Positions 1,675 through 21,971 of a DNA stretch of 25,016 nt are shown here, in pieces. The notes beneath the pieces are model-generated. The model had not been told where the DNA came from. It was given only the letters and a program-made list of their open reading frames with translations, and did no database searches. The DNA is from a virus (Duplodnaviria > Heunggongvirae > Uroviricota > Caudoviricetes): positions 1 through 25,016 of IMG/VR virus record IMGVR_UViG_2675903352_000013, one strand, 5' to 3'. Within the stretch, counting starts at the first letter, position 1. The number at the start of each line of letters is the position of its first letter. A program made the position numbers and the translations under genes.

Positions 1675-3993
1675 TTAAATCCGAAGTGATGTAACTCTTC
1701 CGGTCGGTTTGACAATAGGGAATTGCTTAACAATAAAATAACCTCCGGCATCATTCGGGTGATCGTTGCCAGATTTTTTATCAGGCTCACCCTTATCATC
1801 CCAGACCTGTTGCTCCAGAGATTCGGCATATACCGGACAACGCTTCACATTAACTTTATAGCGACGCTCACCATTGGCATTGCAGAACATTGCATTCATT
1901 GAGTTAACGCGATCTTTTACTGGCGGATTCGAACTGTTTACAACAACGTTAAAACCAGCCTGTTTAAGCTGAGCAATATCCGTCGCACTTGCGTTATTTG
2001 ATTTTCTGGAATCCCCGGATGCATCAGGATAAATATAAATTTCCCTTACTTTCCGATAATCATTCCCGTCATATAACCAGAAGCGCTCTTTAATAATACG
2101 GATCATATCTGGTGTATCGTAAGCGTTAATGATTTCAGTTACTGCGCATGGAAGCCCAAAACGTAACACATGAACGACTCCAGCCATTTTTCCGACGTTA
2201 AAATCCATCCCGATATATATCGGCTCACCTGGCTGTTCCTCTTCTTCGCAATTATTCAGTTTTCGGTCAAACTGATGGTAAACAGTACCACTTGTCAGGT
2301 TAGTAAACTGTCCTCGAAGATAGGCTTTAATCAGCTCTGGAGGATATGACTCAAGGAGCGAGGGAATGTAATCTGCTGGCAAATTCTTTTCATTATCGAA
2401 AGTAGATGCCTGCACCAGACCATACAGTGAGGCCAGCTCTGTTTTTTCACGTACGGCTTTAACAAACTGCTCGTAGACAAATTTGAATCCTTCCGGCGTG
2501 GTTGTAACGTCAATACCGTTACGAAGTCCATCAACCTTATAACGCATACGCGCAATTATCTTGCGCCACGCTGTTCTGGCTTTTTCCTTCGGCAAAATGT
2601 CCAGTTCATCCACCAGCGCATTACCAATTTTGAAACCGACGATCGTTTGCGGCTTCTCCATCGTTCTGCAGATAGTGGTTCCACGATACTGACGTCCGTA
2701 ATAAAAATGAACTTCTTTATTTCCCTCGTTAATTTTTACATTTAGCCCCCAGTCGGCAGCAACTTCTTCAACTGTAGGATAAAAAATATCGCGAATTTGT
2801 GGATATGTAGGCGCAAAATATCCCTGATTTATACCCGGATGCTCCCAAATCCCCTTACATATGCCACCACATCCAACCCATGTTTTACCGCTATTGTGAT
2901 GAATCGTCCCATCAGCAGTTACGTAGCAGTTATTATCCAATACCTGGAGGTCATAATATGGCTCGGCCTTCTGCAACAGTGTTACACTCAATATGTTGCA
3001 GGTTTCGATTAAGGAGTTTGGTTTTGACGCCTCTTGACCGTTTAATTTGTGATTTAGCACATCCAGAACGTACCGTTTCAGAAGTTGCTTCTCTGGCAGG
3101 TTGTGACCGCAGTCATGTTTATCGTTGCATATCTCGTTATGGGTTAACGCTGAAACAACACCAGAAGCCTGTCCCTCGAGAAAGTGCGAAGGACAGAATC
3201 CTCGCTCTTGCTGATGGTCACCGTACGTCGGCAGAGATCGCGGCGGAAGTTGGTTGCACAGAAAAGCACGTTCAAAATATTCTCCGAATTCACAACGCCA
3301 ACCGGCTACCCTGTGGCGCCAGAAAGGGTGAGTTGAACCCCAGCTTTCGTGGTGGTCGAATTGTTGATCTGGATGGATATGCCGTTGTTCCAGCGCCTGC
3401 TGACCATCCATATATGCGCAGAACAGGCATGATGTTTGAACATCGTTTGATCGCTGAAAAGAAGCTGGGGCGTTATCTGCTGCCATCAGAAGTTGTTGAC
3501 CATATAGACGGGCTTCATCTGCATAACACCCCAAGTAATCTGCGAGTTTTTGATTCAAACGTGGATCACCTGCGTGCAACGATTTCGGGACGGCGGCCAA
3601 ACTGGTCAGAAGAAGGTTTTGCGAAGATGCAAATACCTTCACCGATTCGTCCAGACTATCCACAGATCGATAGCTACCGTCAGCGCAAAAAACGCGGTGA
3701 TGTCCGCTTGCTACAAATTCTCCTCGCTGCGTCACTACTCGGTATAGATTCGACACACCTTTTGGGTACGCACCACCACTTAGCGAAAGCTCAAATCGAT
3801 TATTCTCATCCGACCAAGATAAAACGCGCATTGGTCGAGTTATTTCCTGAATGGGTAGAATCCCATTCTCTGTAACCACAGGCGTACTTCCCCTCAGGCA
3901 ACCAAAACCAGCAACATAGGCTTTAAATTTATGAGGCATAGAAAGAAATCGCGCCTGAGGCACATTAAGCGTCGGAGAGATCATCTTCATCAC
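1675..3993 (-). CDS. Terminase large subunit (TerL) carrying an in-frame intein within the Walker A P-loop
   Basis: Continuous 772-aa ORF. N-extein ends KAYVAGFG and C-extein begins SGKTWVGCGG, so removing residues 32..367 restores a canonical P-loop AGFGSGKT. Downstream motifs: Walker B-like NALVDELD, and nuclease-domain acidic motifs IYIGMDFNVGK and YPDASGDS. Start overlaps the putative terS 3' end by 29 nt. Confidence 0.8.
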   Translation of the reverse strand: MMKMISPTLNVPQARFLSMPHKFKAYVAGFGCLRGSTPVVTENGILPIQEITRPMRVLSWSDENNRFELSLSGGAYPKGVSNLYRVVTQRGEFVASGHHRVFCADGSYRSVDSLDESVKVFASSQNLLLTSLAAVPKSLHAGDPRLNQKLADYLGCYADEARLYGQQLLMAADNAPASFQRSNDVQTSCLFCAYMDGQQALEQRHIHPDQQFDHHESWGSTHPFWRHRVAGWRCEFGEYFERAFLCNQLPPRSLPTYGDHQQERGFCPSHFLEGQASGVVSALTHNEICNDKHDCGHNLPEKQLLKRYVLDVLNHKLNGQEASKPNSLIETCNILSVTLLQKAEPYYDLQVLDNNCYVTADGTIHHNSGKTWVGCGGICKGIWEHPGINQGYFAPTYPQIRDIFYPTVEEVAADWGLNVKINEGNKEVHFYYGRQYRGTTICRTMEKPQTIVGFKIGNALVDELDILPKEKARTAWRKIIARMRYKVDGLRNGIDVTTTPEGFKFVYEQFVKAVREKTELASLYGLVQASTFDNEKNLPADYIPSLLESYPPELIKAYLRGQFTNLTSGTVYHQFDRKLNNCEEEEQPGEPIYIGMDFNVGKMAGVVHVLRFGLPCAVTEIINAYDTPDMIRIIKERFWLYDGNDYRKVREIYIYPDASGDSRKSNNASATDIAQLKQAGFNVVVNSSNPPVKDRVNSMNAMFCNANGERRYKVNVKRCPVYAESLEQQVWDDKGEPDKKSGNDHPNDAGGYFIVKQFPIVKPTGRVTSLRI
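2893..3900 (-). other. Intein (Hint domain) inserted in the TerL P-loop, about 336 aa
   Basis: Read directly from the minus-strand translation: block A-like CLRGSTPVVTENGILPIQEI starting with Cys (codon 3900..3898); block B-like GEFVASGHHRVF; block F/G-like YYDLQVLDNNCYVTADGTIHHN followed by +1 Ser (codon 2892..2890). No LAGLIDADG or HNH motif in this frame between the blocks. Confidence 0.7.
2958..3875 (+). CDS. HNH endonuclease (HNH_3-like motif) with two N-terminal HTH-like segments, encoded antisense within the TerL intein
   Basis: Plus-strand ORF (track 2880..3875). ATG at 2958 is preceded by GGAGG at 2946..2950 with a 7-nt spacer. Motif DGYAVVPAPADHPYMRRTGMMFEHRLIAEKKLGRYLLPSEVVDHIDGLHLHNTPSNLRVFDSNVDHL matches the classic phage HNH homing-endonuclease pattern. 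Two HTH-like repeats upstream (RTVSEVASLAGCDRSHVYRCISRYGL and RTSAEIAAEVGCTEKHVQNILRIHNA). The C-terminal ~100 aa may be non-functional read-through constrained by the opposite-strand frame. Confidence 0.6.
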   Translation: MARPSATVLHSICCRFRLRSLVLTPLDRLICDLAHPERTVSEVASLAGCDRSHVYRCISRYGLTLKQHQKPVPRESAKDRILALADGHRTSAEIAAEVGCTEKHVQNILRIHNANRLPCGARKGELNPSFRGGRIVDLDGYAVVPAPADHPYMRRTGMMFEHRLIAEKKLGRYLLPSEVVDHIDGLHLHNTPSNLRVFDSNVDHLRATISGRRPNWSEEGFAKMQIPSPIRPDYPQIDSYRQRKKRGDVRLLQILLAASLLGIDSTHLLGTHHHLAKAQIDYSHPTKIKRALVELFPEWVESHSL

Positions 3994-5062: not shown

Positions 5063-5314
5063 TTAGTCCTGATTTTTATCCACCCTGAGTAATGCACGCA
5101 GAGCAAAGGCATCCCCTTTTCTGGCAAGCTTAAACAATGCCGCCCGTAGCTCGGCTTCACCTTTCGCTCTGCCCTTACGGATGGACGCATAAAAATTTGT
5201 CATTGTTTCCCGATTTTCTTTCAGTCTGTTCAGATCAACATCCAGAACGTCAGCGATTTGTTGTGCAGTCATCCGGCATGCTGCCAGAGACTCGACTTTC
5301 GAATACGGAATCAT
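5063..5314 (-). CDS. Small HTH-containing protein directly upstream of terS
   Basis: 83-aa ORF, ATG at 5314..5312 preceded by a GGGGGTGA Shine-Dalgarno-like sequence; stop TAA is 3 nt before the terS ATG. HTH-like segment MTAQQIADVLDVDLNRL. Confidence 0.45.
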   Translation of the reverse strand: MIPYSKVESLAACRMTAQQIADVLDVDLNRLKENRETMTNFYASIRKGRAKGEAELRAALFKLARKGDAFALRALLRVDKNQD

Positions 5315-6200
5315 TTATCACCCCCATTGATATGCAGGGTGTCTTCTTCCTGTATTTTTCGTGAAGGATTTTTACTGCAGCGTTGTTCCAGGTGACCTGA
5401 TGGTGAATGCGTTTATGGCTGGCGCCCATCAGTGAGATTTTTACGCACGACGGCGCATACATGACGGAGTAAAAACTTTTAACGTAGGTACCGGAATCCA
5501 GATACAGTTCGGTCATTCCGCCGCTGTTTTTCTGCGTTTGCTTCTGCCCTAACTGGACAGCGCCAATCGTCAAAAACAATTCACCACGACGACCGAGATT
5601 CGTGTATGTATTCACATCCTCGTTAATACGCCCCATAAATGAGAATGGTCGGTCAACAGAACAAATAAAGCTGTTCATTGCTTTGCGTTTCACCCATGCA
5701 GCATGACCACCATTATCACCAAGAAAGTCTCCCCCCTGCGCCATAGCGATGGAAAGCGCAGGAATTGATTCGTAATACGCCAGCATTTCAGAAAGGATCG
5801 CGTCCAGTTTCCTTATCGGAAAATAAGCCTGGTCATAGTTGCGATCTACCCGAAACTGAAACTCGTGATAGTCGTCATCAAGCTGGATGTAGTATTTACA
5901 CCCAACCTTTTTTGCCAGGCCCAAACAGGCATTCCTGGCATAAAAGATTGAACGTCGATCGCCAAAGTTGTCGGCTTCGTCAAAACGACTGGCGATATCG
6001 GCTTTGGAAAACACCAGCACCTGCTCACCAAATTCTGCTACGTACTGATGCCGGGTTTTATCTTCATCATCAACAACGATAAAAATTTTCCCGGTATAGC
6101 CAGCACGACGCAACGTCCGGTAAGTCAGAACTTTGTCCGGTCGCCCGTGAGTCAGAATAAAGGCGCAAAAATCATCACGCATATTACTCCTCCTCGCCAT
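5250..6200 (-). CDS. Hypothetical protein with GT-A-like glycosyltransferase signatures
   Basis: 316-aa ORF, ATG at 6200..6198 with SD GGTGGAG; overlaps the ParB-like gene by 17 nt. N-terminal pattern FILTHGRPDKVL...GKIFIVVDDED and a DxD-like motif YIQLDDDYHEF resemble the GT-A fold. The fold call is tentative. Confidence 0.5.
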   Translation of the reverse strand: MARRSNMRDDFCAFILTHGRPDKVLTYRTLRRAGYTGKIFIVVDDEDKTRHQYVAEFGEQVLVFSKADIASRFDEADNFGDRRSIFYARNACLGLAKKVGCKYYIQLDDDYHEFQFRVDRNYDQAYFPIRKLDAILSEMLAYYESIPALSIAMAQGGDFLGDNGGHAAWVKRKAMNSFICSVDRPFSFMGRINEDVNTYTNLGRRGELFLTIGAVQLGQKQTQKNSGGMTELYLDSGTYVKSFYSVMYAPSCVKISLMGASHKRIHHQVTWNNAAVKILHEKYRKKTPCISMGVINDSVFESRVSGSMPDDCTTNR

Positions 6201-6963
6201 GCATGATCTCCACCATGCGCTGCGTCATCCTGACAAACCCATTTTCAATTGCCTGCTGATAATCAATGATCACCAGAGCCGATTCCTCAAAAAGGCTCTG
6301 AATTTCAGCGGGGGCGTGAGCGTAATAGTCCGCGATTCTGCTGAAATTAAACACCGTGTGACGTTCTGCCGCGCACAGAAGGAATTTCTCAATATCAGGA
6401 TCAAGGGACACCGAACGTGTCCGGCTGATCAGCTCCTGAGTTTTCGTATCGTCGTACAGTTCACAGATATCCGGTTTATCGCCTGACGGCTCATAAACAG
6501 GCGTATCAATTTTCGTCGTATACGGCTCCTCCTCATTTCCTGTACCAGGCAAAATATCCGTCAACAGTTCATCAATTTCTGTCGGGCTGAAGCCTGTCAG
6601 GGAGACATCAAAATCAGCATTAATTAGGTCCGACAGCTCCATCCGTAACAGATCTTCATCCCAGCCAGCATTCATCGGCAGGCGATTATCTGCCAGACGG
6701 TACGCCTTTTTCTGATCATCCGTCAGACCAGACAGAACGATGACCGGAACGAAATCCATTTTGAGCACTTCAGCCGCCATAACGCGACCGTGACCCGCAA
6801 TAACTTCGCCCTTTTCATCAATCAGCACCGGATTAGTCCAGCCAAATTGCTTAATGCTTTCTACCAGTTGCGTCACCTGCTCAGGGCTGTGTGTCCTGGC
6901 ATTGTGTGCATACAGAGACAGCTCTTGTAACGGGCGATAGACGATCTTCAATTTCTCGCTCAT
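6184..6963 (-). CDS. ParB-like nuclease domain protein
   Basis: 259-aa ORF, ATG at 6963..6961 with SD GAGG. N-terminal ParB/Srx-like domain (YRPLQELSLYAHNARTH, LVESIKQFGWTNPVLID, IAGHGRVMAAEVL, KKAYRLADNRL); acidic C-terminal half. Confidence 0.7.
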   Translation of the reverse strand: MSEKLKIVYRPLQELSLYAHNARTHSPEQVTQLVESIKQFGWTNPVLIDEKGEVIAGHGRVMAAEVLKMDFVPVIVLSGLTDDQKKAYRLADNRLPMNAGWDEDLLRMELSDLINADFDVSLTGFSPTEIDELLTDILPGTGNEEEPYTTKIDTPVYEPSGDKPDICELYDDTKTQELISRTRSVSLDPDIEKFLLCAAERHTVFNFSRIADYYAHAPAEIQSLFEESALVIIDYQQAIENGFVRMTQRMVEIMHGEEE

Positions 6964-7248: not shown

Positions 7249-7527
7249 TCAACGTTTAATCGTGCCATTGGTTTGTGCTGCCCTGTTTTTCTCAAAAGTC
7301 CTGATATCAGCCTTATCCCTGTTGCACTGTGCTAACGCTGACAACAATGCAACATTCAGGTTAAGGCTTGCCCCCCACGTAAACGGGTCGGGTAAATCTG
7401 GCTGGGGTGTTTCAGCCGTCAGACTGGCTGGTAACGGAACCACCGGCACCGACACGTATACCGTTCGCGTATTCGTGCAACCGCTTAACTGCGCCAGAAG
7501 GAACGATACGAACAGCGCAATCATCAT
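7249..7527 (-). CDS. Rz1-like outer-membrane spanin lipoprotein, starting inside Rz in another frame
   Basis: Internal ATG ATG at 7527..7522; signal peptide with lipobox MMIALFVSFLLAQLSGC followed by a Pro-rich mature region. Starts within Rz and extends past its stop. Confidence 0.5.
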   Translation of the reverse strand: MMIALFVSFLLAQLSGCTNTRTVYVSVPVVPLPASLTAETPQPDLPDPFTWGASLNLNVALLSALAQCNRDKADIRTFEKNRAAQTNGTIKR

Positions 7528-7804
7528 CCGCAACAGCCACTTTGATATCTTTCTGGATTCTCTGTGACTCCAGTGCGATCTGCTGTTTTGCATGCTGGTT
7601 AGCCTCTATAACTGTGTTGATGATTTGCAGTGATTGCAGGACGTTACGGGTAATGGCTGTTGCTGATTCAGCATTTCGTACAGCCTCATCAGCGCGCTCC
7701 TTTTCGTGTTGATATTTGCTGTAGTAATGCCCGGCATACCAGATAAAAGAACCGATGACGGTAACAAAGAAGGCAACAATAACCAGCTTATATCTCAGCT
7801 TCAT
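7412..7804 (-). CDS. Rz-like inner-membrane spanin
   Basis: 130-aa ORF, ATG at 7804..7802, overlapping the endolysin 3' end. N-terminal transmembrane helix (LVIVAFFVTVIGSFIW) followed by a predicted coiled-coil periplasmic domain. Confidence 0.6.
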   Translation of the reverse strand: MKLRYKLVIVAFFVTVIGSFIWYAGHYYSKYQHEKERADEAVRNAESATAITRNVLQSLQIINTVIEANQHAKQQIALESQRIQKDIKVAVADDDCAVRIVPSGAVKRLHEYANGIRVGAGGSVTSQSDG

Positions 7805-8264
7805 TTACCACCCCACCAGCTTCTTTAAATCGGGCAATCAGGTCACCGATTCTATGTTCATACTGACCGTAACCAGCGCCCGGCAACGAAGCCCAGATAT
7901 TGCTGCAACGGTCGATTGCCTGACGAATATCGCCGCGGTCAATCATCGGTAATGCGCCACGCTCTTTAATCTGCTGCAGCGCTACAGCATCCTGACTTTC
8001 TGGAGAAAAATCTTTCAGGCCAAGTTGCTTGCGGTAGGCATCCCACCAGCGTGAAAGAAGCTGGTAACGTCCGGCGGCTGTTGATTTGAGTTTCGGATTT
8101 AGCGTGACAAGTTTGCGGGGGTGATCGGAGTAATCAGTGAACAGTTCGCCACCGACAATAACATCATAACCGTGATTTCTGGTTTTCTACCGTCCGTTAT
8201 CCGTTCCTTCTGACCATGCCACCATATCAAGGAAAGCTTTACGCTGGGAATTCAGTGTCTGCAT
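7788..8264 (-). pseudogene. Lambda R-like endolysin (lytic transglycosylase) with an in-frame premature amber codon
   Basis: Minus-strand translation from ATG 8264..8262 reads MQTLNSQRKAFLDMVAWSEGTDNGR, then TAG (plus-strand cta at 8187..8189), then continues in the same frame KTRNHGYDVIVGGELFTDYSDHP...KEAGGVVNEAEI to TAA at 7790..7788. Total 159 codons; closely resembles lambda R as recalled, which has Gln at this position. Confidence 0.75.
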
Positions 8265-8267
8265 TAA

Positions 8268-8627
8268 TTACTCCTTATGGGCACCAAACTTGTTACCGAT
8301 GACCCTCATTGCCGCACCACGAATAGCATCAACACCAATCAGCCCCACCCCACCACCAATGGCAACAGAAAGTGATTTAGGCCATCCGACATACTCAAGC
8401 GCGGATGCAAAAGTCAACGTCAGAGCACCACAGAGCAAAATCTCAAGCGTTTTTCGTTTCCAGCCCCCACCACCGCCAAAATAGGCGATGCGCAAACCAG
8501 CCATAACGATCGACATAATCACTGCACCCAGCGGTGTATCTCCACGCCACCAGCTCTGAAACAACTCCAGCCAGTCCGGCCAGGTATTTGGGTTATGAGG
8601 CATTTCATCATCTCTCACCTCGCACAT
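8268..8627 (-). CDS. Holin (possible dual-start holin/antiholin)
   Basis: 119-aa ORF, ATG at 8627..8625, directly upstream of the endolysin. Two Met codons (M1 and M9) ahead of hydrophobic segments; Gly-rich membrane segments. Confidence 0.55.
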   Translation of the reverse strand: MCEVRDDEMPHNPNTWPDWLELFQSWWRGDTPLGAVIMSIVMAGLRIAYFGGGGGWKRKTLEILLCGALTLTFASALEYVGWPKSLSVAIGGGVGLIGVDAIRGAAMRVIGNKFGAHKE

Positions 8628-8650: not shown

Positions 8651-8680
8651 TAAAAAATCCCCGAATATTCCGGGAGCGGA
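8651..8680 (-). terminator. Rho-independent terminator-like hairpin (third of three between Q and the lysis genes)
   Basis: Minus-strand CCCGGAATATTCGGGG hairpin followed by ATTTTTTATT. Confidence 0.4.
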
Positions 8681-8723
8681 AACGGGGAAAGGCGTTGCAC
8701 TAAATGGGCCTGTCTGCGGCCTT

Positions 8724-8750
8724 AAATAAAAAACCCCGGCAAATGCCGAG
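8724..8750 (-). terminator. Rho-independent terminator-like hairpin (second of three)
   Basis: Minus-strand CCTCGGCATTTGCCGGGG stem followed by TTTTTTATTT. Confidence 0.45.
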
Positions 8751-8971
8751 GTCAGTTAATCGTTGCCGCTGTTAGTGCCGCGGTGCACTATCTCTTTATC
8801 AGGCTACTTACGCGTTAAACCGGGTGCCAACCGTAACTCAGTGATGCTTTACGCTTCCTCTCCTTCACTACGTCGCCATGGGAGCCCGACCAGATTAACG
8901 CTGTCGTCACGTTGCCAAAATATGGCATCCAATGAATTCTTTTTATTTAGCTATTTCATTTTTCTATCCGT

Positions 8972-9003
8972 CAGAAACAACAAAACCCGCTCGGTGGCGG
9001 GTT
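8972..9003 (-). terminator. Rho-independent terminator-like hairpin, candidate tR' downstream of a putative Q-dependent late promoter
   Basis: Minus-strand AACCCGC-caccga-GCGGGTT stem followed by TTGTTGTTT. A promoter-like TTGCAT-17-TTCAAT lies on the minus strand around 9050..9090. Confidence 0.45.
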
Positions 9004-9100
9004 CTATTAAAGTTCAATTGCACTTGGTTCGCCTCGCGATACAGCTTTGCGAAGCGTAGCTGAATTGAATCAGTTTATTGGCAAAAATGCAATAACTTTT

Positions 9101-9643
9101 TTATTGGCTTTCTCCGCATAACGCTAATTTCATTGGTATATACAGAATGTGCTCAGCAACACTCAACCATGCGTCAATGCGATTTCTGCAAGTTTTCAAG
9201 CTCCAGCCAGGGCGATACTCATTTAACTGTTGTGCCATTTTCAGCTTACTCATCCCCCGTCCCTCATACCGTTGTCGAAGGACGCTAATCAATCCCGGAT
9301 GTTCTGTCAGCACCTCACTTATAACCCGATCAATACATAACGCCTCTGCATCAGTACAATGCGCCAGCCAGCTCTTTTGCTTCCCGTTGATCATCTCACG
9401 TAAAAATGCTTCCAGCTCCGGCTTCTCTATTCCCGCTTTTTTCATCCTGCGCAGGGCTTCATTGACGGCTGTTTTCGTCAATTTTTTGGATGCCAGCAAC
9501 TGGTTAAACATATTTCCCATCTTACCGCCGCCAATATACGACCAGCGCCCCCACATGCGCAGTTTTCCCTGAATCCAGACACTTTCCAGCGTGGTGAGAC
9601 GAAGGTGTTCCCCGCTTTTGCCTGTATTTGTTGGGTAAATCAT
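9101..9643 (-). CDS. Putative late-gene antiterminator (Q-like), by position
   Basis: 180-aa ORF, ATG at 9643..9641 with strong SD AAGGAAGG; ATGA overlap with the upstream gene's stop. It is the last gene before the terminator cluster and lysis cassette. No sequence-level family match recalled. Confidence 0.4.
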   Translation of the reverse strand: MIYPTNTGKSGEHLRLTTLESVWIQGKLRMWGRWSYIGGGKMGNMFNQLLASKKLTKTAVNEALRRMKKAGIEKPELEAFLREMINGKQKSWLAHCTDAEALCIDRVISEVLTEHPGLISVLRQRYEGRGMSKLKMAQQLNEYRPGWSLKTCRNRIDAWLSVAEHILYIPMKLALCGESQ

Positions 9644-9894
9644 AAATAACCTTCCTTTCTCCAGATTTCTTGTGTGCGAAAAACACCTTCTGCATGCATC
9701 AGGCGCAATTCTTCTTTGGTGTAATCACTGGTTTTTACCCGCCCGTCGATTAAATCGTGGCACGAGCTACAGGCAATCGCTGCCTGCATATCGTGTGGCT
9801 TTATCGCTGTTCCGCACGTTCCCGCCAGTCGGTAATGCGCCGCACGGATGTTTCGGGATTGTGATTGCAGTAGCCAGGAATTCTGACTGTACAC
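9640..9894 (-). CDS. YbcO-like (DUF1364) protein, GTG start
   Basis: Motif CGTAIKPHDMQAAIACSSCHDLIDGR...EGVFRTQEIWRKEGYL resembles the YbcO family as recalled. Track start is GTG; an in-frame stop lies 18 nt upstream, so the N-terminus appears shorter than I recall for the family. Confidence 0.5.
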   Translation of the reverse strand: MYSQNSWLLQSQSRNIRAAHYRLAGTCGTAIKPHDMQAAIACSSCHDLIDGRVKTSDYTKEELRLMHAEGVFRTQEIWRKEGYL

Positions 9895-9928
9895 ATCTGA
9901 CCTTTTGCCGCTTTACGTAAATCCACCA

Positions 9929-10528
9929 TTACGCAAACTCCAGCAGCTGCGCGGCCACATTTTCGACTTCCTCCAGAGAGGAGAATTTACGGAACAGGAT
10001 CCAGTTCCACAGGACGTTAAGTACGGCTTTATAAACCTGTTGAAATTCAGTTTCGTCCATATTCGCAAAAGCAATGGACTTCGCCCGACGCCCGCGGCTA
10101 CCGTCTGGATAAAAATGCTCGGTGTAGAAGCCGGCCTGAATGGTCACCCACTCGCGGAAAGCGTCAAATGATTTGAGCAATGCCATATCCTGGGTTCTGC
10201 GTGTCGCAACGGTATTCAGATATTGTTCCGCGGCATCACTCAGAGCTGGCGTATGTTCCCTGCCTACTGATTCACACAGGTAATCAACGAAGCCGAACAC
10301 CATTTCTCGTTCGCGAGGTGTGATCGCCCCACCGCTCGGAGTCCAGTAATCGAATCCAAGTTGCAGAAGTTTGAAAAAACGCTTGTGAAATGCATAGTTA
10401 CGCACACGCTTAAAATCAGCATGTATCCACTCGCCTATTTTGATTTGATGCAGAAAATCGCAACTCTCCGGTGTCGCCGGGAGCAGTAAGCCGGAAGATG
10501 TTTGTTTAACCAGTTGTATATGCGCCAT
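9929..10528 (-). CDS. Hypothetical phage protein (nin-region)
   Basis: 199-aa ORF, ATG at 10528..10526 with SD GGAGAA. No family recognised. Confidence 0.5.
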   Translation of the reverse strand: MAHIQLVKQTSSGLLLPATPESCDFLHQIKIGEWIHADFKRVRNYAFHKRFFKLLQLGFDYWTPSGGAITPREREMVFGFVDYLCESVGREHTPALSDAAEQYLNTVATRRTQDMALLKSFDAFREWVTIQAGFYTEHFYPDGSRGRRAKSIAFANMDETEFQQVYKAVLNVLWNWILFRKFSSLEEVENVAAQLLEFA

Positions 10529-10599
10529 CGTAGTTCTCCGCTGGCGCAGTAGAATGGGTGTTCAGCCCGTTGTGTAGTATACCAGAATCAATGCCAATA

Positions 10600-10812
10600 C
10601 TAACAGGATGCCCTGACTCGCAACTCATCTGGCAATTTATCATTTCCCATAATATCACTATTCCTCATCGGTAAAAAAATTGCCTTGCGACCATTCCGAT
10701 ACATCATTGCTTTTTGTGTATCAGGGAAATAATCCATTTCAACAATAACTGACAGATCATCACAACGTATGACTGCAAATTTAGCGCCAAAAGATTTCTG
10801 TGATTTTTTCAC
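10600..10812 (-). CDS. Small hypothetical protein, GTG start
   Basis: 70-aa ORF; GTG start preceded by GGAGG at a 5-nt spacer. Adjacent to an AT-rich tract. Confidence 0.4.
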   Translation of the reverse strand: MKKSQKSFGAKFAVIRCDDLSVIVEMDYFPDTQKAMMYRNGRKAIFLPMRNSDIMGNDKLPDELRVRASC

Positions 10813-10996
10813 GATGCCTCCAAGTCTCTAAGGAAAGAGGTTTATATCTACCTGGAGGCAAAAATATATATACACAGAATATTTATTTCATGTTGTATAT
10901 TTGATTATTTAATGTGCAGGTGCAATGACTTTTATTTATTGCCGCGCATATAATCAAATATGTGATCATCTTTCATCCTTCGTATTCGACAGACAA

Positions 10997-11022
10997 TAAA
11001 AAACCCGCCGAAGCGGGTTAGG
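10997..11022 (-). terminator. Rho-independent terminator at the 3' end of the hok transcript
   Basis: Minus-strand AACCCGC-ttcg-GCGGGTT followed by a T-run; a second perfect hairpin GGCGAGGGA-gaaa-TCCCTCGCC lies at about 11058..11081. Confidence 0.5.
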
Positions 11023-11087
11023 TGCGGGTGCGTTGAGGATGCCTGACACATCAGAGGTGGCGAGGGATTTCTCCCTCGCCAGGTCTC

Positions 11088-11243
11088 TTACTCCTCAGGT
11101 TCGTAAGCTGTGAAGACAGCGACCTCCGTCTGGCCGGTTCGGATTCGTACCTCGCAGAGGTCTTTCCTCGTTACCAGTGCCGTCACTATGACGGTTAAAC
11201 AGATGACGATCAGGGCGATTAACATCGCCTTTTGCTGCTTCAT
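11088..11243 (-). CDS. hokD: Hok/Gef-family type I toxin (HokD/RelF-like)
   Basis: 51-aa product from the internal ATG at 11243..11241: MKQQKAMLIALIVICLTVIVTALVTRKDLCEVRIRTGQTEVAVFTAYEPEE, matching the Hok/Gef pattern and HokD as recalled. The track ORF extends in frame upstream to 11360. Confidence 0.85.
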   Translation of the reverse strand: MKQQKAMLIALIVICLTVIVTALVTRKDLCEVRIRTGQTEVAVFTAYEPEE

Positions 11244-11319
11244 AGCCTGCTTCTCCTGTGTAAGTTCACAGAGATATTGCTCGCCTGGATACTGTTTCTT
11301 ATCGGTTATAGTGGTCATA

Positions 11320-11748
11320 TCACTCTCCTTTTCCCTTAAGCATTGCAGCGCGACAGGCATTCCAGCCCTTCACATAACCTACCATCATCAACTGGTCATT
11401 CATGGCGGGCAGCATTGTGCGGGACGTACTGATTTCCTCCGGCACTACCGGAACTGACGGCACAGACAGTAAAGCCTTGGCCATACACATTGCTTCCAGT
11501 CCTGTAGCCTCAGCTATACCGTCACGAATAAGTTCAAGCCCCTCTTTTGTTAACAGTTTCATTCTTTTATACATGACTGGCACCACCGGCTCTGCTTCCA
11601 GTGATGCCAGCGCGACTTTAAATGCGGTAAGTACGTTTTTAACCACATCGATTTTGAATACTATTTCATCACATACAAACGATTTATCGTCTACTACCGT
11701 TTCAATTCCGGTAATCGTGTTTTGTAGCCATTTGGTTAATTCAGTCAT
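11320..11748 (-). CDS. Hypothetical protein
   Basis: 142-aa ORF, ATG at 11748..11746 with SD AAGGG. No family recognised; its 3' end overlaps the in-frame region upstream of hokD. Confidence 0.5.
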   Translation of the reverse strand: MTELTKWLQNTITGIETVVDDKSFVCDEIVFKIDVVKNVLTAFKVALASLEAEPVVPVMYKRMKLLTKEGLELIRDGIAEATGLEAMCMAKALLSVPSVPVVPEEISTSRTMLPAMNDQLMMVGYVKGWNACRAAMLKGKGE

Positions 11749-11878
11749 TTTTCATTACCGCCCTTTCAGGCGGTCTCCTGATATTCTGAGGGTGCAGAAA
11801 TCCCTCCGGTTAAGGATTTAATAAAAATCACTTCTGATTTAAATTTTCAGTATTTTGTTGTCAGGTGGTTTATCGTCT

Positions 11879-12070
11879 TTATCTTTCAGCCTTATTTCTC
11901 AGCCATACACAAACAGGGCCATCTTCGGTGTCATATATCGAACCAATAAACCATCCATCGCCCTCTGGTCGTTCCGGTTCCCATGCAGAAATATCAGCAT
12001 CACAAGCATCAAAGTCAGCACATCCTTCGTCTCTGAAGCAGAGGACGTATTGAAGATTATTTTCCTCCAT
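11879..12070 (-). CDS. Small acidic hypothetical protein
   Basis: 63-aa ORF with ATG start. Preferred over the overlapping 86-aa GTG-start ORF on composition, but weak. Confidence 0.35.
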   Translation of the reverse strand: MEENNLQYVLCFRDEGCADFDACDADISAWEPERPEGDGWFIGSIYDTEDGPVCVWLRNKAER

Positions 12071-12176
12071 CCAGGCGTTAAACTCTTCCGTTGAAATATA
12101 TTCCCGACCATCACAGAATTTTTCATATTCAGGATGCGTCCAGCAGCCATATTCATCACGTACTACTGGTATTTCT

Positions 12177-12368
12177 CTAATTTATTTCATTTCTGTTCTC
12201 CCACGTTTTCAGACTTTCACCACAGAACGGGCAAAAACACATTGCAACACCACGACCGATATATTGCCCAGAGTGAATTTGAGCAATATCTATGCCTGAC
12301 TCGCCGGTGTTTATGTTCACACGTTCCGGGATAAATATGCCTTTACTCTTGTAATGTTGGATTTCCAT
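12177..12368 (-). CDS. Small hypothetical protein with C-terminal CxxC
   Basis: 63-aa ORF with ATG at 12368..12366; weak RBS. Confidence 0.3.
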   Translation of the reverse strand: MEIQHYKSKGIFIPERVNINTGESGIDIAQIHSGQYIGRGVAMCFCPFCGESLKTWENRNEIN

Positions 12369-12437
12369 ATTCGAGAGATTTTGCCAAAGCCGCGCACGGT
12401 TCTATCTTGTTGCCATTAACCTGACATTTTGATGCGT

Positions 12438-12854
12438 TCACAGTACCACCTCCTGAAAATTTCCCCTCCAGAAAGCCAGCACGCGCTGCATAGCTTCGCT
12501 CTGACGGCACTCGCGACAAATTATGTTCTGTCGCCTGTTGTAACGGCGTATTTCACCATCCGGCAATGAATAAATCAGGTCGGGGTCGCTCTTCTTTTTC
12601 GCTGTACCTTTCGACATTTTTTTGCAGGCCTTTATCCAGTCCTTACGCGCCTGCTCCGAAGGAAATATCCCATGCCCCGAGCCATATACTGCACCACTGA
12701 CCACCAGCTCTTTCGCCAGAACTTCTATCAGGTGTCTGGTAGCTCCGGTTTCATCTTCCAGTTGCTTACGCGTTTTCCTTCCGTCTCTGCGTACCAGTTC
12801 CACAATACGCGCCTTCAGTTGTTCCCTGTATTCAGGTGTAAAAACGTTTCCCAT
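12438..12854 (-). CDS. Hypothetical protein
   Basis: Track ORF starts at TTG 12911; the internal ATG at 12854..12852 is preceded by GAGG at a 6-nt spacer and gives a 138-aa product. Confidence 0.45.
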   Translation of the reverse strand: MGNVFTPEYREQLKARIVELVRRDGRKTRKQLEDETGATRHLIEVLAKELVVSGAVYGSGHGIFPSEQARKDWIKACKKMSKGTAKKKSDPDLIYSLPDGEIRRYNRRQNIICRECRQSEAMQRVLAFWRGNFQEVVL

Positions 12855-12861
12855 AAACGCC

Positions 12862-13377
12862 TCACTTTTCCGATACAACGCGACTGGTGGAATCGACAAT
12901 CTGTCGGACAATATCCCGGTGTTTATTCAGCTCCCGCAGTGCTGCGCAGACGCGCTCCCACTTCTGGACACGGTTTTTTGCCCGGCGCAATTCGCGGTTT
13001 GCCAGATGCAGCGATGGCAAAATCAGGTCATCGGCTTGTGTTTCGGTGAACGATGGCAGCGACTGCACAATGTCCGCCACAGTTCCTGTTTTAATTTCTT
13101 CCGGTATTGCAGCTTCCGGCGCTGGTAACGCAACACCAGATGGCTGAGGAAAGGCTTTACCACCATTTCCCGTTACCGATGCGGCTTTCGGCTCTGCTGG
13201 TAAATTATCGTCCGGCATGCAGTAACGAAATTTACCGTTCTGATTTACACGAATCAGACGCCCTTTGCTGATTGCCTGAGCCAGCGTTGAAGCCACTTTG
13301 CGTGATGTGGTACCGAACAACGTAGCCAGTTCATCCGCCGTTTGTGGTCCGCGTTGTTCAATCGTCGCGGTTAAAAT
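12862..13377 (-). pseudogene. Downstream part of a tandem winged-helix protein gene; open frame lacks an ATG and appears frameshifted from the upstream ORF
   Basis: Frame is open from the TAG at about 13377 and encodes a wH-like segment [31 protein letters not shown] before the track's TTG start at 13320. No ATG is available upstream in this frame. Confidence 0.4.
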
Positions 13378-13624
13378 CGCACTCTGAGATTTTCGCTACT
13401 GTTGCTGTGGTGGTTTCTTCCGGCAGTTCTGCCTGCATTGGCTGTTCCTGCTGAACGTTGTTATCAGCCACACGCCAGGTGTACGCGCTTTTATCAACAA
13501 AACCAGCATTTTTCAGTTCCCATAGTTCGTTAAGCACTTCTTCACGACTGATATCAAGTCGCGCCGCAAGTTCTATGGATGTGGCTTTTCCCATTGCTTT
13601 CAGTGCGTCAAAAACAGTCTCCAT
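13358..13624 (-). CDS. Winged-helix DNA-binding protein, N-terminal part of a possibly split gene
   Basis: ATG at 13624..13622 with SD GGGAGA; sequence [43 protein letters not shown]. Stop TGA at 13358 lies about 20 nt from where the downstream frame opens. Confidence 0.5.
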
Positions 13625-13646
13625 TAAATTTTTCTCCCGGTAAAAA

Positions 13647-14393
13647 TCACTTCGTGATTCCTGGCTGGACGACATTCGGGCGCCAGCTTTCCCAGTTAAA
13701 ATTCACCCAGCGTCCGCCGTTCATGGTCATGCGATCCATAATCCGCTCACCGAGCAATGTTTTCATGGCCTCATAGTTCAGGTTTGTCAGCATTCCCACG
13801 CTACGCATCGACGCTGTCCGTCGATCAATAATCTGGTGCAGTACCACCTGCTCGTTTTTCGTCTCACGCTGAATGCCAATTTCATCAAGAACCAGCAGAT
13901 CCACTTCGCACAGTTCCCGCAAAAATTTTTCGCCTGACTGCCCGTCGTCATAGCTGGCGTGCAGGGCACTCATAACATCAGCCACAGTAACCACTATCAC
14001 TGTCTGGCCGTCTTTCAGCAGGCGATTTCCGATAGCCGCCGCCAGATGGTTTTTCCCGGTACCAGGTTTTCCACTGAACGCGAAATTTGTACACCCGGTC
14101 ATCAGTTCATCGGCGATGGATTTTGCCTGGCTTAACGCGTATCGCTGACCGTCGTTCTGCACCTGGTAATTCGCAAACGAGCATTTGCGGTGCAACGGCT
14201 GGATGCCAGAGCGATTCAGGATTTTTTCAACCCGCAACTGACGATTCAGGCGGTTGATCTCCTCGCAACGTTTCTGGCCTTCAGCAAGTTGCCACTCGCG
14301 CCACTCCGCAACCGTTCTGAATGGGGCGGTTACATGTGGTGGGGTCAGTCTGCGGATACGTTCCAAGACGCCTCCTGTCGCAATATTTTTCAT
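13647..14393 (-). CDS. ydaV: DnaC-like helicase loader / replication protein (YdaV-like)
   Basis: 248-aa ORF with ATG at 14393..14391; Walker [16 protein letters not shown] and IstB/DnaC-like organisation; length matches Rac YdaV as recalled. Confidence 0.8.
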
Positions 14394-14399
14394 GGTTCG

Positions 14400-15266
14400 T
14401 TACCCCCTGAAGCCTGGCGGGATCGCACTGTCCGGCAACGAGACGGTGTTAACCTGCCGAGGCAACGTCTCCGGTCGAACGCCTTTCGGCGCGAACAAGC
14501 CCTGGTATTCGTTGGCGATGCTGTGTCGAATCACCTGCTCAGGGGTAAAACCCTGCTGGCGGAATTTTTCCAGTTCCCGTATCGCCCCGTTAGCGCCCTG
14601 CTCCGTTCGAATCGGTTTTCGCAATGCCTGCCTGAACCGGACCCACTCATGCCAGAGTGTTTCCGGCAACCAATCGGGCAACTCAATAGCCTCCGGCTCG
14701 AATTTTTTAGATGCTCGTTTTTGGCGAGGGGGATTTAGGGGGAGATCAGTATTTATATCTTCCTCTTCCTCTTCCTCTGGTAACGCTTTTTGATCCGTTT
14801 GTGTAACGCTGGCAGCGTTACCTTTTCGTTTCAGTTCGCGTATTTTTGTAACCCTCTCGTTTGTAATCGCCCGTTTTTTAGAGCTTTTTCCGTTATGACG
14901 TTCAAAGTTAGGTAGAGAAAGCCCACCGTTATTTTCGACCAGCCATCCAACCTGAATTAACGCATCAGCAAAACCAGCCATAAAAGTGATGCGATCTATT
15001 GCACTTTTTGTAACGCTGCGAGCGTTACACTCTGCGTTACCGTCTATCATTTGTTGATCCGCCCATGCCCAGAAGCGAATGACTTTCCCTAATGCGGCAT
15101 CTGGATCAATATTCAGAATCTCAGCAAGCCTGAATATTTCCGGCTTATCCGGCGTAATAACCTCGAGCTTTATCCAGTTTGAAGCCATATTGTTTTCACC
15201 TTGTAACGCTGTAAGCGTTACATTTAACTGATACCGAACAAAACAGTCCGGCACGATTAATTTCAA
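14400..15266 (-). CDS. ydaU: Replication initiation protein (YdaU-like); start uncertain
   Basis: 288-aa track ORF starting at TTG 15266, abutting the ydaT stop. Alternative ATG at 15188..15186 with SD AAGGTG gives 262 aa. Acidic Glu-run linker; contains three palindromic repeats. Confidence 0.6.
   Translation of the reverse strand: MKLIVPDCFVRYQLNVTLTALQGENNMASNWIKLEVITPDKPEIFRLAEILNIDPDAALGKVIRFWAWADQQMIDGNAECNARSVTKSAIDRITFMAGFADALIQVGWLVENNGGLSLPNFERHNGKSSKKRAITNERVTKIRELKRKGNAASVTQTDQKALPEEEEEEDINTDLPLNPPRQKRASKKFEPEAIELPDWLPETLWHEWVRFRQALRKPIRTEQGANGAIRELEKFRQQGFTPEQVIRHSIANEYQGLFAPKGVRPETLPRQVNTVSLPDSAIPPGFRG
14803..14821. repeat. 19-bp perfect palindrome GTAACGCT-N3-AGCGTTAC, copy 1 (candidate iteron/origin site)
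   Basis: gtaacgct ggc agcgttac; an additional half-site GTAACGCT at 14780..14787. Confidence 0.7.
15010..15028. repeat. 19-bp perfect palindrome GTAACGCT-N3-AGCGTTAC, copy 2
   Basis: gtaacgct gcg agcgttac; extra half-site-like tgcgttac at 15033..15040. Confidence 0.7.
15203..15221. repeat. 19-bp perfect palindrome GTAACGCT-N3-AGCGTTAC, copy 3
   Basis: gtaacgct gta agcgttac; lies between the TTG and ATG candidate starts of ydaU. Confidence 0.7.
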
Positions 15267-15689
15267 TCAATGCACTACGACAGAGTCGCCGGGCGACCCG
15301 CCGCCGCTGAAATGTGCTTTACGATAAACGGCCTGGACTGCATCATCATGCGCATCAATTGCCGTACTCAACGCTTCCTGCGCCGCCAGTAATGCACGGC
15401 GTTCCAGGGTATCGAAGATGCAGAGTCGGTGACGCAGCTCGCGCGGAAGAATTGCCAGAACCGCAGGGATCAGTTTCTGAATTTTTTCCCTTTGGGCTTT
15501 CGTTTCACCTTTCAACCAACGGTGATAGATATTCTGCTGATTGTTCCAGTCCTTGCCAGGCACCAGGGGCAATTCGCCGCCCCCCTGGCGCAGATATTCT
15601 TCAGTAATTGCATTGGCAACCCATGCCTGCCCTTTTTCAGATGCCATGGCCAACAACACTGATTCGATATGCTCATGCCTGATTTTCAT
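15267..15689 (-). CDS. ydaT: YdaT-like protein (putative toxin of the Rac YdaS/YdaT pair)
   Basis: 140-aa ORF, ATG at 15689..15687 overlapping the ydaS stop (ATGA). Sequence MKIRHEHIESVL...QAWVANAITEEYLRQGGGELPLVPGKDWNNQQNIYHRWLKGETK closely matches Rac YdaT as recalled. Confidence 0.75.
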   Translation of the reverse strand: MKIRHEHIESVLLAMASEKGQAWVANAITEEYLRQGGGELPLVPGKDWNNQQNIYHRWLKGETKAQREKIQKLIPAVLAILPRELRHRLCIFDTLERRALLAAQEALSTAIDAHDDAVQAVYRKAHFSGGGSPGDSVVVH

Positions 15690-15928
15690 GAATCAACCGC
15701 TCCTATGCTGTTTTCGCTATGCTTACCGTCTGGGGGGAATACATCGTCAAGTCCACAATGAGCGCCAAGCCGATTAAGGGTAGAAACAATTTTTCTGCAC
15801 TCCTCTAGTCCAGGGGTACGAAAATTTGCTTCGTAATTTGCCAGTCGGCTTTGTATCCACCCTAACTGAACAGCGAGTTGTCTTTGAGACAGACCAAGCT
15901 GTTTTCGATATGTTGAAATTTTGTTCAT
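15686..15928 (-). CDS. ydaS: Cro/YdaS-like HTH (XRE-family) regulator
   Basis: 80-aa ORF, ATG at 15928..15926 with SD GGAGG at a 7-nt spacer; HTH segment LGLSQRQLAVQLGWIQSRLANYE; divergent from the repressor gene. Confidence 0.65.
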   Translation of the reverse strand: MNKISTYRKQLGLSQRQLAVQLGWIQSRLANYEANFRTPGLEECRKIVSTLNRLGAHCGLDDVFPPDGKHSENSIGAVDS

Positions 15929-16024
15929 TGAAAACCTCCGATGACAATTTTAAACACACATTGTGTTATACGATCAAGCTGTTTTGTGTTTTATATAAAT
16001 CACGAATCGTGATACAAGGATGCA
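15929..16024. promoter_or_regulatory. Divergent promoter/operator region between the cro-like and repressor genes
   Basis: Contains ACACA-T-TGTGT inverted repeat (15956..15966), a TTTTGTGTTTT half-site, and a 15-bp perfect palindrome ATCACGAATCGTGAT at about 15999..16013. Confidence 0.5.
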
Positions 16025-16444: not shown

Positions 16445-16473
16445 TGATCTTGATATCACAGTAATATGCCAAT

Positions 16474-16497
16474 CAGCCCGCTATCAGCGGGCTTTTT
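16474..16497 (+). terminator. Rho-independent terminator downstream of the repressor gene
   Basis: AGCCCGCT-atc-AGCGGGCT followed by TTTTTTGT. Confidence 0.7.
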
Positions 16498-16526
16498 TGT
16501 ACCATCATCATATGACATCCACCACA

Positions 16527-16570
16527 AAACACATTTCGTGTTGACACACGAAAACACATTGTGTTTAATA
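16527..16570 (+). promoter_or_regulatory. Candidate promoter with operator half-sites upstream of ydaF/ydaG
   Basis: AACACA-T-TGTGTT inverted repeat at 16553..16565 and AACAC-N5-GTGTT at about 16528..16543; TTGACA at 16542..16547 with TTTAAT about 17 nt downstream. Confidence 0.4.
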
Positions 16571-16880: not shown

Positions 16881-16891
16881 GGGTTTCCAAA

Positions 16892-18364: not shown

Positions 18365-18438
18365 TTAACTGACTATTCGAAACTGAATTTATGCCAGCAA
18401 TGGCAGGGATTCGCTCAACCTTAATTAAGGAGAAAAAC

Positions 18439-18814: not shown

Positions 18815-21800
18815 ATGAGCACTGACAAACAAAATTTTGCGTTACATTGCGACGCGAAAAATGAGGGCGCAAGAAAACGCCTCGGCATCAAAGGCGGCTT
18901 CTTCTGGACAGAGGCAAAAAAACTTTCTGTTGCGGTTTCACGCTGCATTGCTGCAATGGACGATGCAGGCTACGACGAAGATGATTTTAAAAAACCTGTT
19001 CGCGTAAATTTGCCCGTTGTTGATGACCTTCCGCCAGAAGGCGTATTTGATACGGAATTCTGCAACCGTTACGAAAAAGGCGGTGAAGATGGCATTACAA
19101 TGGTATTTATCGCGCCATCACACTCTGTTCAGGACAAACCAGCCAGCACTGACAACACCAACGTCAACGGCGAAGATATGACTGAGATTGAGGAGAATAT
19201 GCTACTCCCGATTTCAGGTCAGATTCTGCCTGTTCGCTGGCTGGCACAGCACAGCAGCGAAAAACCGGTAACGCACGTTTCACGGGAAGAACTGCGCGCA
19301 TTACATAACGCACAGGATGAAAAACTTCCCGCAGTTACAGCGCTGGCCATCTCAAATAAAGCAGCGCAACTCGAACCGCTGGAGATTCGCGATCTCCACA
19401 AACTGGTTCGTGACACTGACAAAGTTTTCCCTAATCCTGGTAATTCAGATCTGGGACTGATGACTGCTTTTTTCGAAGCATACCTGGGCACCGACTACAC
19501 CGATCGAGGTCTGCTGACAAAAGAGTGGATGAAAGGGAATCGTGTTTCACGCATCACCCGCACGCCCTCCGGTGCTAATGCTGGCGGCGGGAACAAAACT
19601 GATCGCGGTGAAGATTTCGTCCACGATCAGGCTTCGCTGGCACGCGATGTTGCGACTGGCATTCTGGCCCGTTCAATGGATGTTGATATTTATAACCTTC
19701 ATCCGGCACACGCTAAACGTATTGATGAAATCATCGCAGAGAATAAGCCGCCCTTTTCTGTTTTCCGTGACATATTCACTGCTATGCCTGGGGGATTGGA
19801 TTATTCCCGCGCCATCGTGGTTGCATCCGTGAAAGAAGCACCTATCGGTATTGAGGTTATTCACGCGCACGTCACTGAATATCTGAACAAGGTGCTGATT
19901 GAAACCAATCACGCCAATCCTGATCAGGAAATCGTGGATATTACTTGCGGCCGTTCCTCAGCCCCAATGCCACAGCGTGATACAGAAGAAGGAAAACAAG
20001 GTGAAGAAAAACCACAACCATCTGGCGCAATGGCAAATGAACAGGCAACGCCTGAAACAGTGGAACCGGATACAACTGAACATCATCAGAACACGCAGTC
20101 GATGGATGCTCAGCCACAGGTAAATTCTGTTGATGCGAAATATCAGGAACTGAGGGCAGAACTCCATGAAGCCCGGAAAAACATTCCGCCCCAAAATCCT
20201 GTCGATGCAGACAAATTACTGGCTGCCTATCGCGGAGAATTTGTTGAAGGGATTAGCGACCCGAATGATCCGAAATGGGTTAAGGGGATCCAGACTCGCG
20301 ATTCTGTGTACCAGCATCAGCCAGAAACGGAACAGAACGACCAGAAAGCTGAACAGAACAGCCCAAATACGCAACAAAACGAGCCAGAAACGAAACAGTC
20401 TGAGCCAGTAGTGCAACAACAGGAAACGGAGAAAGTTTGCACCGCCTGCGGTCAGGCTGGAGGAAATAGCTGCCCTGACTGTGGTGCAGTGATGGGAGAC
20501 GCAACGTATCAGGAAACCTTTAATGAAGAAAATATGGATGAATCTCAGGAAAAAGATTCGGAGAAAATGGAAGACGATAAACATCCGCACAAGGAAAACA
20601 CTGGCAACCATCCGCATCACAATTGCAGTGATGAAACTGGTGAAGCGTCAGCTCCTGTAGCAACTGAAATCATGTGGCCGTCATATTTCGAGCCTGGTCG
20701 CTATGAAAACCTCCCGAACGAGGTTTATCACGCCGCCAACGGAATAAGCAGCACGATGCTGAAGGATGCCCGTATCAGTTTGATGTATTACCACGGGCGG
20801 CACATTGCCGGAACTATTCCGTGTGAAGAAAGTGATGCATTGCTACGTGGGCGGATCATTCACAGCTATGTTCTGGAAACGGATAAATTCTCTGATGAAT
20901 ATGCCATTCCGGTACCGGTTCCTGAAGATGTGGTTGCCACTTCTCAAGAACTGATCGCCATTATTAAAAAACACAATGCCAGTTTGCCAGCACTGATGAC
21001 GCCAGAGCAGATAAAAGAGTGGATCGAAAACTACAACAGCACTCTTATTCAGCCACTGTCGGTAAGTGCTGGAGCCGAAGAAACAGGCATTCTTTACGGC
21101 TCGCTCCCGGAGGAATTCCGGCGTATTCCAGAAGGAGAAAAACACACTGCATCAGCAATGAAAGCCTGTATTAAAGAATACAACGCAAGCCTCCCCTCTC
21201 TACTGAAAACCAGTGGAACACGGGAGCAACTTCTGGAGCAAATTGAAACTGTAGATCCAGAACTGGCAAAAAAGAACGGGCTAAATCTTTGCCTTACAAC
21301 ATCAGTGGTACAAAAGAGCAATTAACCGAAATCGCCCGGAAAATTCGCCCGGAACTGGTAACACTGGAGGACTGGCAAAAACGCCAGCAAGAAGAAAATG
21401 CAGGAAAAACGTTTATCAGTCCAGATATGTATGAACAGGCAAAAAATATTCACGCGGCACTGCAAAACAATACTGACGCGGCAAGACTACTCAACCACCC
21501 GGATCGCAAATCTGAAATCAGCTATTTCGGGTTTGATGAAGAAACCGGGCTGGAAATCAGGGTCCGCCCTGATATCGAAATCCGACTGCCATACGAAAGC
21601 ATCTGCGCCGACGTGAAATCAGTAAGCTTCGGTTATGTGCGGCAAGAACGACTAAAAGATCGCTTACACCGTGAAATTATTGAACGTGATTATCACCTGA
21701 GCGCCGCAATGTACTGCGATGTGGCAAACCTGGATAAATTTTTCTGGGTCTTCGTCAATAAGGATGCTGGCTATCACTGGGTGGCAGTTGTGGAAGCTTC

Positions 21801-21960
21801 GCAGGAACTCCTTGAACTTGGTCGCCAGGAGTATCGCCGGACGCTACGCCAGATAAACGAAGCTCTGGAGACAAACAACTGGCCAGCACCAATTACCGAA
21901 AGTTATACCGACGAATTAAACGACTTTGATCTTCGTCGTCTTGAAGCACTGAGCATCTGA
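18815..21960 (+). pseudogene. recE: RecE (exonuclease VIII) homologue, apparently split by a frameshift into 836-aa and 223-aa ORFs
   Basis: N-terminal and central regions strongly resemble Rac RecE as recalled. The nuclease domain begins in ORF1 ([15 protein letters not shown]...[12 protein letters not shown]) and continues in ORF2 (RPDIEIRLPYE...DVKSV), which has no ATG (TTG at 21289); the frames overlap at 21247..21325. Confidence 0.7.
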
Positions 21961-21971
21961 GGAAGGACACA

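Follow-up and report, generated by a model that had tools for sequence, protein, structure and literature searches.

A probable recent amber mutation in the lambda R-type endolysin gene of a Rac-type prophage of Escherichia albertii NIAH_Bird_8

Host and gene content of the prophage

The window, i.e. the whole stretch of DNA that was analysed, comprises 25,016 nucleotides of the IMG/VR virus record IMGVR_UViG_2675903352_000013. Positions 8815-25016 are 100% identical to BBVQ01000008.1 (GCA_001514805.1), the one NCBI contig recovered by an exact search with the truncated 836-aa RecE, which continues into the host genes ttcA, dbpA, zntB, dgcM and smrA. The BBVQ accession belongs to Escherichia albertii NIAH_Bird_8 (Ooka et al., 2015, Table S1; PMC4700944), a phylogroup G3 strain obtained in 2004 from a Japanese little egret; its draft genome consists of Illumina MiSeq reads at 65x, from which Platanus built 167 scaffolds (Ooka et al., 2015; PMC4700944). 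Against every one of 5,405 E. coli genomes, the host flank reaches an identity of only about 86%, and its DgcM is 99% identical to that of the E. albertii type strain NBRC 107761. Together with the adjacency to ttcA, these identities assign the element to the Rac-family prophages, at the ttcA site of E. albertii.

The early half of the window is of Rac type, with racR-like and cro-like repressors, ydaT/U/V homologues, sieB, kilR, recE, recT, a ralR-like gene, xis and intR. An open reading frame for a Hok/Gef-family toxin (11088-11360, minus strand; PF01848, E = 7e-23) is situated between the replication genes and the Q-like gene, a position that it likewise occupies in relatives. The late region downstream of the spanins encodes a ParB-N protein, a TET-associated glycosyltransferase homologue, TerS, TerL and the portal protein. 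The glycosyltransferase homologue follows the ParB-N protein (259 aa) at 5250-6963 on the minus strand, between the spanins and TerS, and matches PF20691 (E = 2e-35) as well as phrog_842, "beta-glucosyl-HMC-alpha-glucosyltransferase" (E = 7.5e-100). The window shows no sign of a TET/JBP dioxygenase, and the ParB-N/glycosyltransferase pair may constitute a DNA-modification module of Rac-type prophages.

The lysis genes follow each other on the minus strand in the order Q-like gene, leader with two hairpins, holin, endolysin, i-spanin and o-spanin, so that the endolysin locus is part of a holin-endolysin-spanin cassette downstream of a late antiterminator:

9101..9643, minus strand: Q-like late antiterminator (DUF1133), intact (PF06576, E = 6e-103; PF06530, E = 8e-7)
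8659..8753, minus strand: two terminator-like hairpins, situated in the leader that separates the Q-like gene from the holin gene (pattern match only)
8268..8627, minus strand: lambda-family holin/antiholin (PF05106, E = 3e-27; TIGR01594, E = 1.5e-37; phrog_126)
7788..8264, minus strand: presumed pseudogene of a lambda-R-type endolysin (GH104 lytic transglycosylase family), 158 codons with a single internal amber codon in the translation
8187..8189, minus strand: the amber codon TAG, codon 26 of the endolysin gene (CTA on the plus strand)
7412..7804, minus strand: i-spanin (Rz-like, DUF2570), 130 aa, intact (phrog_214, E = 1.5e-42)
7249..7593, minus strand: o-spanin (Rz1/LysC-like lipoprotein with LSGC lipobox), intact (PF23793, E = 1.4e-18; phrog_456)

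The hairpins would take the position of a Q-antiterminated late leader. The holin frame encodes 119 aa from its first ATG and is annotated from Met9 in relatives (start 8603, 111 aa). PF10828 was matched on the identical i-spanin protein of relatives, and the i-spanin gene starts inside the 3' end of the endolysin gene. The overlap of the o-spanin and i-spanin genes resembles P2 LysB/LysC, whereas lambda Rz/Rz1 is of the embedded type; as a lambda-type holin and endolysin thus stand beside overlapped LysB/LysC-type spanins, the cassette is a mosaic. The holin, both spanins, the Q-like protein, TerS and the portal protein are without disabling lesion.

The amber codon in the endolysin gene

The endolysin frame (8264..7788, minus strand) translates into 158 codons plus the terminal stop and is open except for the stop at codon 26, in agreement with the original prediction; it reads MQTLNSQRKAFLDMVAWSEGTDNGR up to this stop and KTRNHGYDV... 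past it. With Gln26 restored, the product aligns with lambda lysozyme 1AM7 over residues 3-157 (E = 2.3e-96), i.e. over its full length, and with the endolysin family phrog_90 (E = 5e-63), and the predicted membership in the lambda R family is thereby upheld. Position 26 of the lambda protein is glutamine, and the lambda R codon itself reads CAG, as had been stated. The derived base is A at position 8189 of the plus strand (T in the coding strand) in place of an ancestral G (C in the coding strand).

Glu19 of the endolysin, which in line with the lambda lysozyme literature we take to be the catalytic residue, aligns with lambda Glu19 and falls inside the 25-residue truncated peptide. Owing to the TAG at codon 26, an uninterrupted frame for an enzyme of about 158 aa is lacking. 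From codon 27 onwards, an in-frame ATG, GTG or TTG is absent until Met107. A near-full-length endolysin arising from translational restart is therefore impossible, and an N-terminally truncated restart product was rejected equally, as it would be without Glu19. The gene is best read as a pseudogene of the lambda R family and not as one of its functional members.

Rarity and recency of the amber allele

Codon 26 of the endolysin gene is CAG in all 11 of 11 relatives (ten loci recovered through their identical i-spanin protein, together with locus L138), and five of them differ from the window gene solely at the codon-26 base (1/477; 99.8% identity). The closest E. coli allele, that of BCE049, shows 2/477 differences, namely one synonymous change and the C-to-T change at position 76, and alleles of lambdoid phages are about 85-92% identical at the DNA level. 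When a 61-mer centred on the TAG was compared with the 3,380 copies present in 5,426 complete E. coli genomes, a perfect match was absent and the nearest copies had exactly one mismatch; among these complete genomes, the closest relatives of the late module were not found either. With a degenerate codon-level pattern designed to catch any R homologue, an amber at this codon gave 0 matches in species-representative genomes, IMG/VR and JGI metagenomes, while the CAG control of the same pattern matched at least 120 viral contigs.

Throughout the 12-kb late region, only seven substitutions are absent from every relative: TerL S444T, two in the intein of TerL, two synonymous ones in TerS, ParB I182T and R Q26*. 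Compared with the relatives, no private variant is present in the holin, both spanins or the Q-like gene. The amber codon is thus a derived, lineage-private lesion with intact relatives, and the original view of a recent point mutation gains from its restriction to one strain and from its being the sole difference from five relatives. Since the gene is otherwise intact and differs at this one point, the amber codon is a genuine sequence feature for which a chance test beyond the comparison with relatives is unneeded. A programmed readthrough or recoding site at codon 26 was rejected, because the stop is absent from all homologues examined. Very probably, what is seen here is a real, recent and ordinary loss-of-function mutation of the Rac-type prophage endolysin in NIAH_Bird_8.

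Other lesions are present within the same endolysin allele family. Locus L238 carries a 1-nt deletion in the C5 run at gene position 144, the low-coverage metagenome contig L240 a 28-nt deletion from position 151, and L232 a 5' truncation at position 145. As read from these public contigs, endolysin inactivation appears to be recurrent and independent.

Further lesions and the decay of the prophage

Two additional genes of the prophage are broken:

18815..21960, plus strand: recE, in which an A6 run at 21268-21273 causes a -1 frameshift and thereby two open reading frames of 836 aa and 223 aa
12862..13675, minus strand: gene for a winged-helix-like DUF1627 protein, in which a run of T4 in the coding strand (A4 at 13373-13376 of the plus strand) causes a +1 frameshift and splits the gene

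The recE run is A7 in 10 of 10 relatives, where RecE has 1,048 aa, and the DUF1627 run is T3 in 9 of 9 relatives, where the intact protein has 253 aa. Both splits, which had been noticed originally, are real and represent private 1-nt homopolymer indels. Judged by comparison with the relatives, this prophage copy has three private gene-breaking lesions, in endolysin, recE and DUF1627. These three lesions speak in favour of the early-stage decay proposed at the outset, as far as the part of the prophage on this contig is concerned, which does not extend to the head and tail genes.

Private substitutions amount to about 20 overall, with synonymous and non-synonymous ones at about seven each, counts that are too small to reveal relaxed selection. 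Of all possible single substitutions in the endolysin gene, 4.5% are nonsense changes, which with some 20 private substitutions leads to an expectation of about one nonsense mutation and fits drift. The three-lesion pattern would consequently reflect the accumulation of mutations in a silent, unselected prophage, with neutrality as the probable regime.

Alternatively, loss of the endolysin might have been adaptive, a selected domestication in which the host lineage was favoured by the absence of lysis and phage release. The three disabling lesions within one prophage and the recurrent inactivation in the same allele family, by 1-nt deletion, 28-nt deletion and 5' truncation, would be in line with such selection, although drift predicts recurrent lesions equally well and the allele is confined to one strain. 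Furthermore, the lambda holin kills the cell by itself; as the holin of this prophage is untouched and would alone kill the induced cell, an R-null allele brings no survival benefit and adaptive inactivation is not favoured. Domestication is accordingly quite improbable, and accumulation of neutral mutations is the preferred reading of the decay.

Predicted consequences for lysis

According to the proposed mechanism, a single C-to-T transition would have turned the Gln26 codon CAG into the amber codon TAG, and translation would halt after 25 residues, leaving a peptide that keeps the position of Glu19 and none of the fold. As this peptide would be the only product, with no restart before Met107, no active endolysin should be made in a non-suppressing host. 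Expression downstream of the amber codon should be little affected, because the ATG of the i-spanin gene is preceded by its own purine-rich stretch GGTGGGGTGG and because a Q-modified polymerase, as known for lambda Q, resists termination.

Lysis by lambda requires the successive action of holin, endolysin and spanin (PMC5295617). Upon induction of the prophage, the holin would be expected to trigger and the cell to die, while the peptidoglycan would stay uncut, so that lysis would fail and the virions would stay trapped. Such a predicted induction phenotype would equal that of lambda R-amber, provided that neither a suppressor nor a further endolysin makes up for the loss. The originally suggested block of lysis in the absence of suppression is thus retained as a prediction, for which the lambda Ram strain of the Young laboratory, R Q26am W73am (PMC10865782, strain table), provides the backing by analogy.

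A conditional or leaky allele, on the other hand, would have the amber codon read by a suppressor tRNA or by a near-cognate tRNA-Gln, with the prophage still lysing its host, perhaps later. A change from CAG to TAG is precisely what a Gln-inserting (supE-type) suppressor reverts at the protein level, and the remaining lysis genes are all intact. Equally, the context of the stop is UAG-A, and an A after UAG is what Bossi is said to have reported in 1983 to be favourable for suppression. However, amber suppressors are uncommon in wild isolates, no tRNA gene was found within the 25-kb window, and the conservation of the TAG in no relative argues against a designed feature. Moreover, lambda R-amber alleles including Q26am serve as lysis-blocked controls in non-suppressing hosts (PMC10865782). 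This assessment of suppressors and of a second endolysin covers the present contig. A leaky allele has little probability compared with a plain loss of function.

Presence of the amber codon in reads and assemblies

The NIAH_Bird_8 genome is a fragmented Platanus draft, with the 167 scaffolds being the most in its study, and the two homopolymer indels within the same 25 kb belong to a class of change that can be error. The possibility that the amber codon is a sequencing or assembly artefact, with C as the true base (CAG) and an intact endolysin, was thus considered. The codon-26 change is, however, a substitution in a non-repetitive context, sequenced at an Illumina depth of 65x, and the host flank genes on the same contig are of normal length, as in relatives.

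Furthermore, Logan contigs were searched with the 52-aa C-terminal open reading frame that gene callers make from the broken R gene. The Logan assembly of the DDBJ run DRR017189 contains a 1,064-bp contig which is 100% identical to window positions 7319-8382, TAG included, so that the amber codon is also present in an assembly made from raw reads. Equally, a Logan contig of DRR017191, common to three samples, is 100% identical to positions 20251-23960 and keeps the A6 of recE, which makes this indel reproducible in a raw-read assembly. The 88-aa DUF1627 frameshift product, in contrast, was not recovered outside the GenBank assembly, a point on the side of error. DRR017189 and DRR017191 are either the reads of the strain itself or those of sister isolates, and in either case the TAG does not stem from the Platanus consensus. 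As a different assembler working on raw reads gives the TAG, an assembler artefact is ruled out, and a systematic read-level error at codon 26 is very unlikely at 65x if DRR017189 is the same read set. Altogether, an artefact has very little probability, and the amber codon is treated as real.

A terminase intein with an antisense endonuclease gene

A more unusual item of the window than the amber codon is found in the terminase large subunit:

1675..3993, minus strand: TerL (terminase large subunit), an open reading frame of 772 aa counted as intact, with a 336-codon intein inside
2893-3900, minus strand: TerL intein of 336 codons in the Walker A motif, AGFG/CLRGST...TIHHN/SGKTW (slashes mark the junctions)
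2880-3875, plus strand: antisense open reading frame of 331 aa in the intein, with HNH_3 and HTH above Pfam thresholds (phrog_10730, HNH endonuclease, E = 6e-48)

TerL has a length of 433-435 aa in the intein-less relatives L125 and L132. With Cys1, a terminal His-Asn and Ser+1, the insert qualifies by its motifs as a canonical intein. Damage to TerL was rejected in view of the in-frame insertion and the canonical junctions, and the original statement that the packaging genes look intact holds with the refinement that the 772 aa of TerL result from an in-frame Walker A intein. The intein is patchy, present in some relatives and absent in L125 and L132. In E. coli MEI003 (L123, 2625-4912), PGAP labels the intein-bearing TerL "incomplete; missing N-terminus"; in this locus as well as in L124, L126, L131 and L133, the intein-bearing TerL is broken up by pipelines and gene callers, which annotate nothing there but the antisense "HNH endonuclease".

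The antisense HNH frame has 380 homologues, down to about 45% identity, and four diverged ones (Pseudomonas-like, Acinetobacter vivianii and two others) hold the same antisense position, in each of which the TerL frame is open over 714-824 codons with the same junction motifs. A shuffle test on Phe-[IMTNK] dipeptides was discarded, as it overstated significance with the proteins being related, and synonymous recoding per lineage was used instead. Upon recoding of each HNH gene, a mean of 5-12 sense-strand stops arose and no more than 0.1% of trials left the frame open, whereas the actual number of sense-strand stops opposite the HNH gene is 0 in five of five lineages. Protein identity is 46-74% in the HNH frame versus 30-50% for the sense translation of the same DNA. 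The central part of the intein codes for an HNH/HTH endonuclease on the antisense strand, and across five diverged lineages both frames have remained open and conserved.

Inteins with a homing endonuclease encoded antisense have been described, albeit rarely; LAGLIDADG and VSR-like types are among them, and HNH of the in-frame kind is listed as well (Gosselin et al., bioRxiv 10.1101/2025.01.02.630785). This preprint cites Gorbalenya (1998) in this connection, and the antisense HNH type is seemingly absent from the types that it lists. The arrangement in Gram-negative prophages looks like a further variant of the antisense-encoded endonucleases.

Significance for prophage annotation

The type of event described here is textbook prophage decay; it involves no new mechanism and the genome is public. 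In inventories of E. albertii prophages, the Rac-type prophage of NIAH_Bird_8 is to be scored as lysis-defective, and annotation pipelines should flag the endolysin gene as a pseudogene. The prophage can serve as a clear case from nature of how decay sets in, with three private point lesions in a module that is otherwise complete and the ancestral allele still circulating unchanged in relatives. Scarcely any probability can be given to the notion that the amber codon is a conditional switch which makes lysis dependent on a Gln-inserting suppressor tRNA or on the endolysin of a co-resident prophage; phage release would then occur only on co-induction or in suppressor hosts, and the prophage would be a satellite-like dependant still killing through its own holin. 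A simple loss of function, which opens no new lysis question, remains the preferred reading, and constitutes a natural recurrence of the classical laboratory allele lambda R Q26am.

Comparison with known systems

Among the closest systems for comparison are the Rac cryptic prophage of E. coli K-12 and other Rac-type prophages at ttcA, with which the window shares the intR-ttcA neighbourhood and the early genes recE, recT, ralR-like, kilR, sieB, racR-like and ydaS/T/U/V. Unlike Rac of E. coli K-12, the present prophage resides in E. albertii and has a complete lysis cassette and complete packaging genes, with point lesions only. The E. coli Rac-type relative MEI003, in contrast, has a different lysis module (essD, rrrD) and trkG in place of the cassette of the window.

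Lambda R (1AM7, 3D3D) has 158 aa like the window gene, with Glu19 and Gln26 at matching positions, and both genes are situated after a lambda-family holin and before the spanins. In contrast to lambda R, the window gene carries TAG at codon 26 and cannot make the enzyme. With lambda Ram it shares both the mutated codon, that of Gln26, and the CAG-to-TAG transition, and lambda Ram can thus be seen as a proxy for the lysis-blocked phenotype. This match is a mild, modest coincidence, since 13 codons of the endolysin gene can become TAG by a GC-to-AT transition. Lambda Ram is, moreover, a double amber generated by mutagenesis in lambda, whereas the window holds a single spontaneous amber in a wild E. 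albertii prophage.
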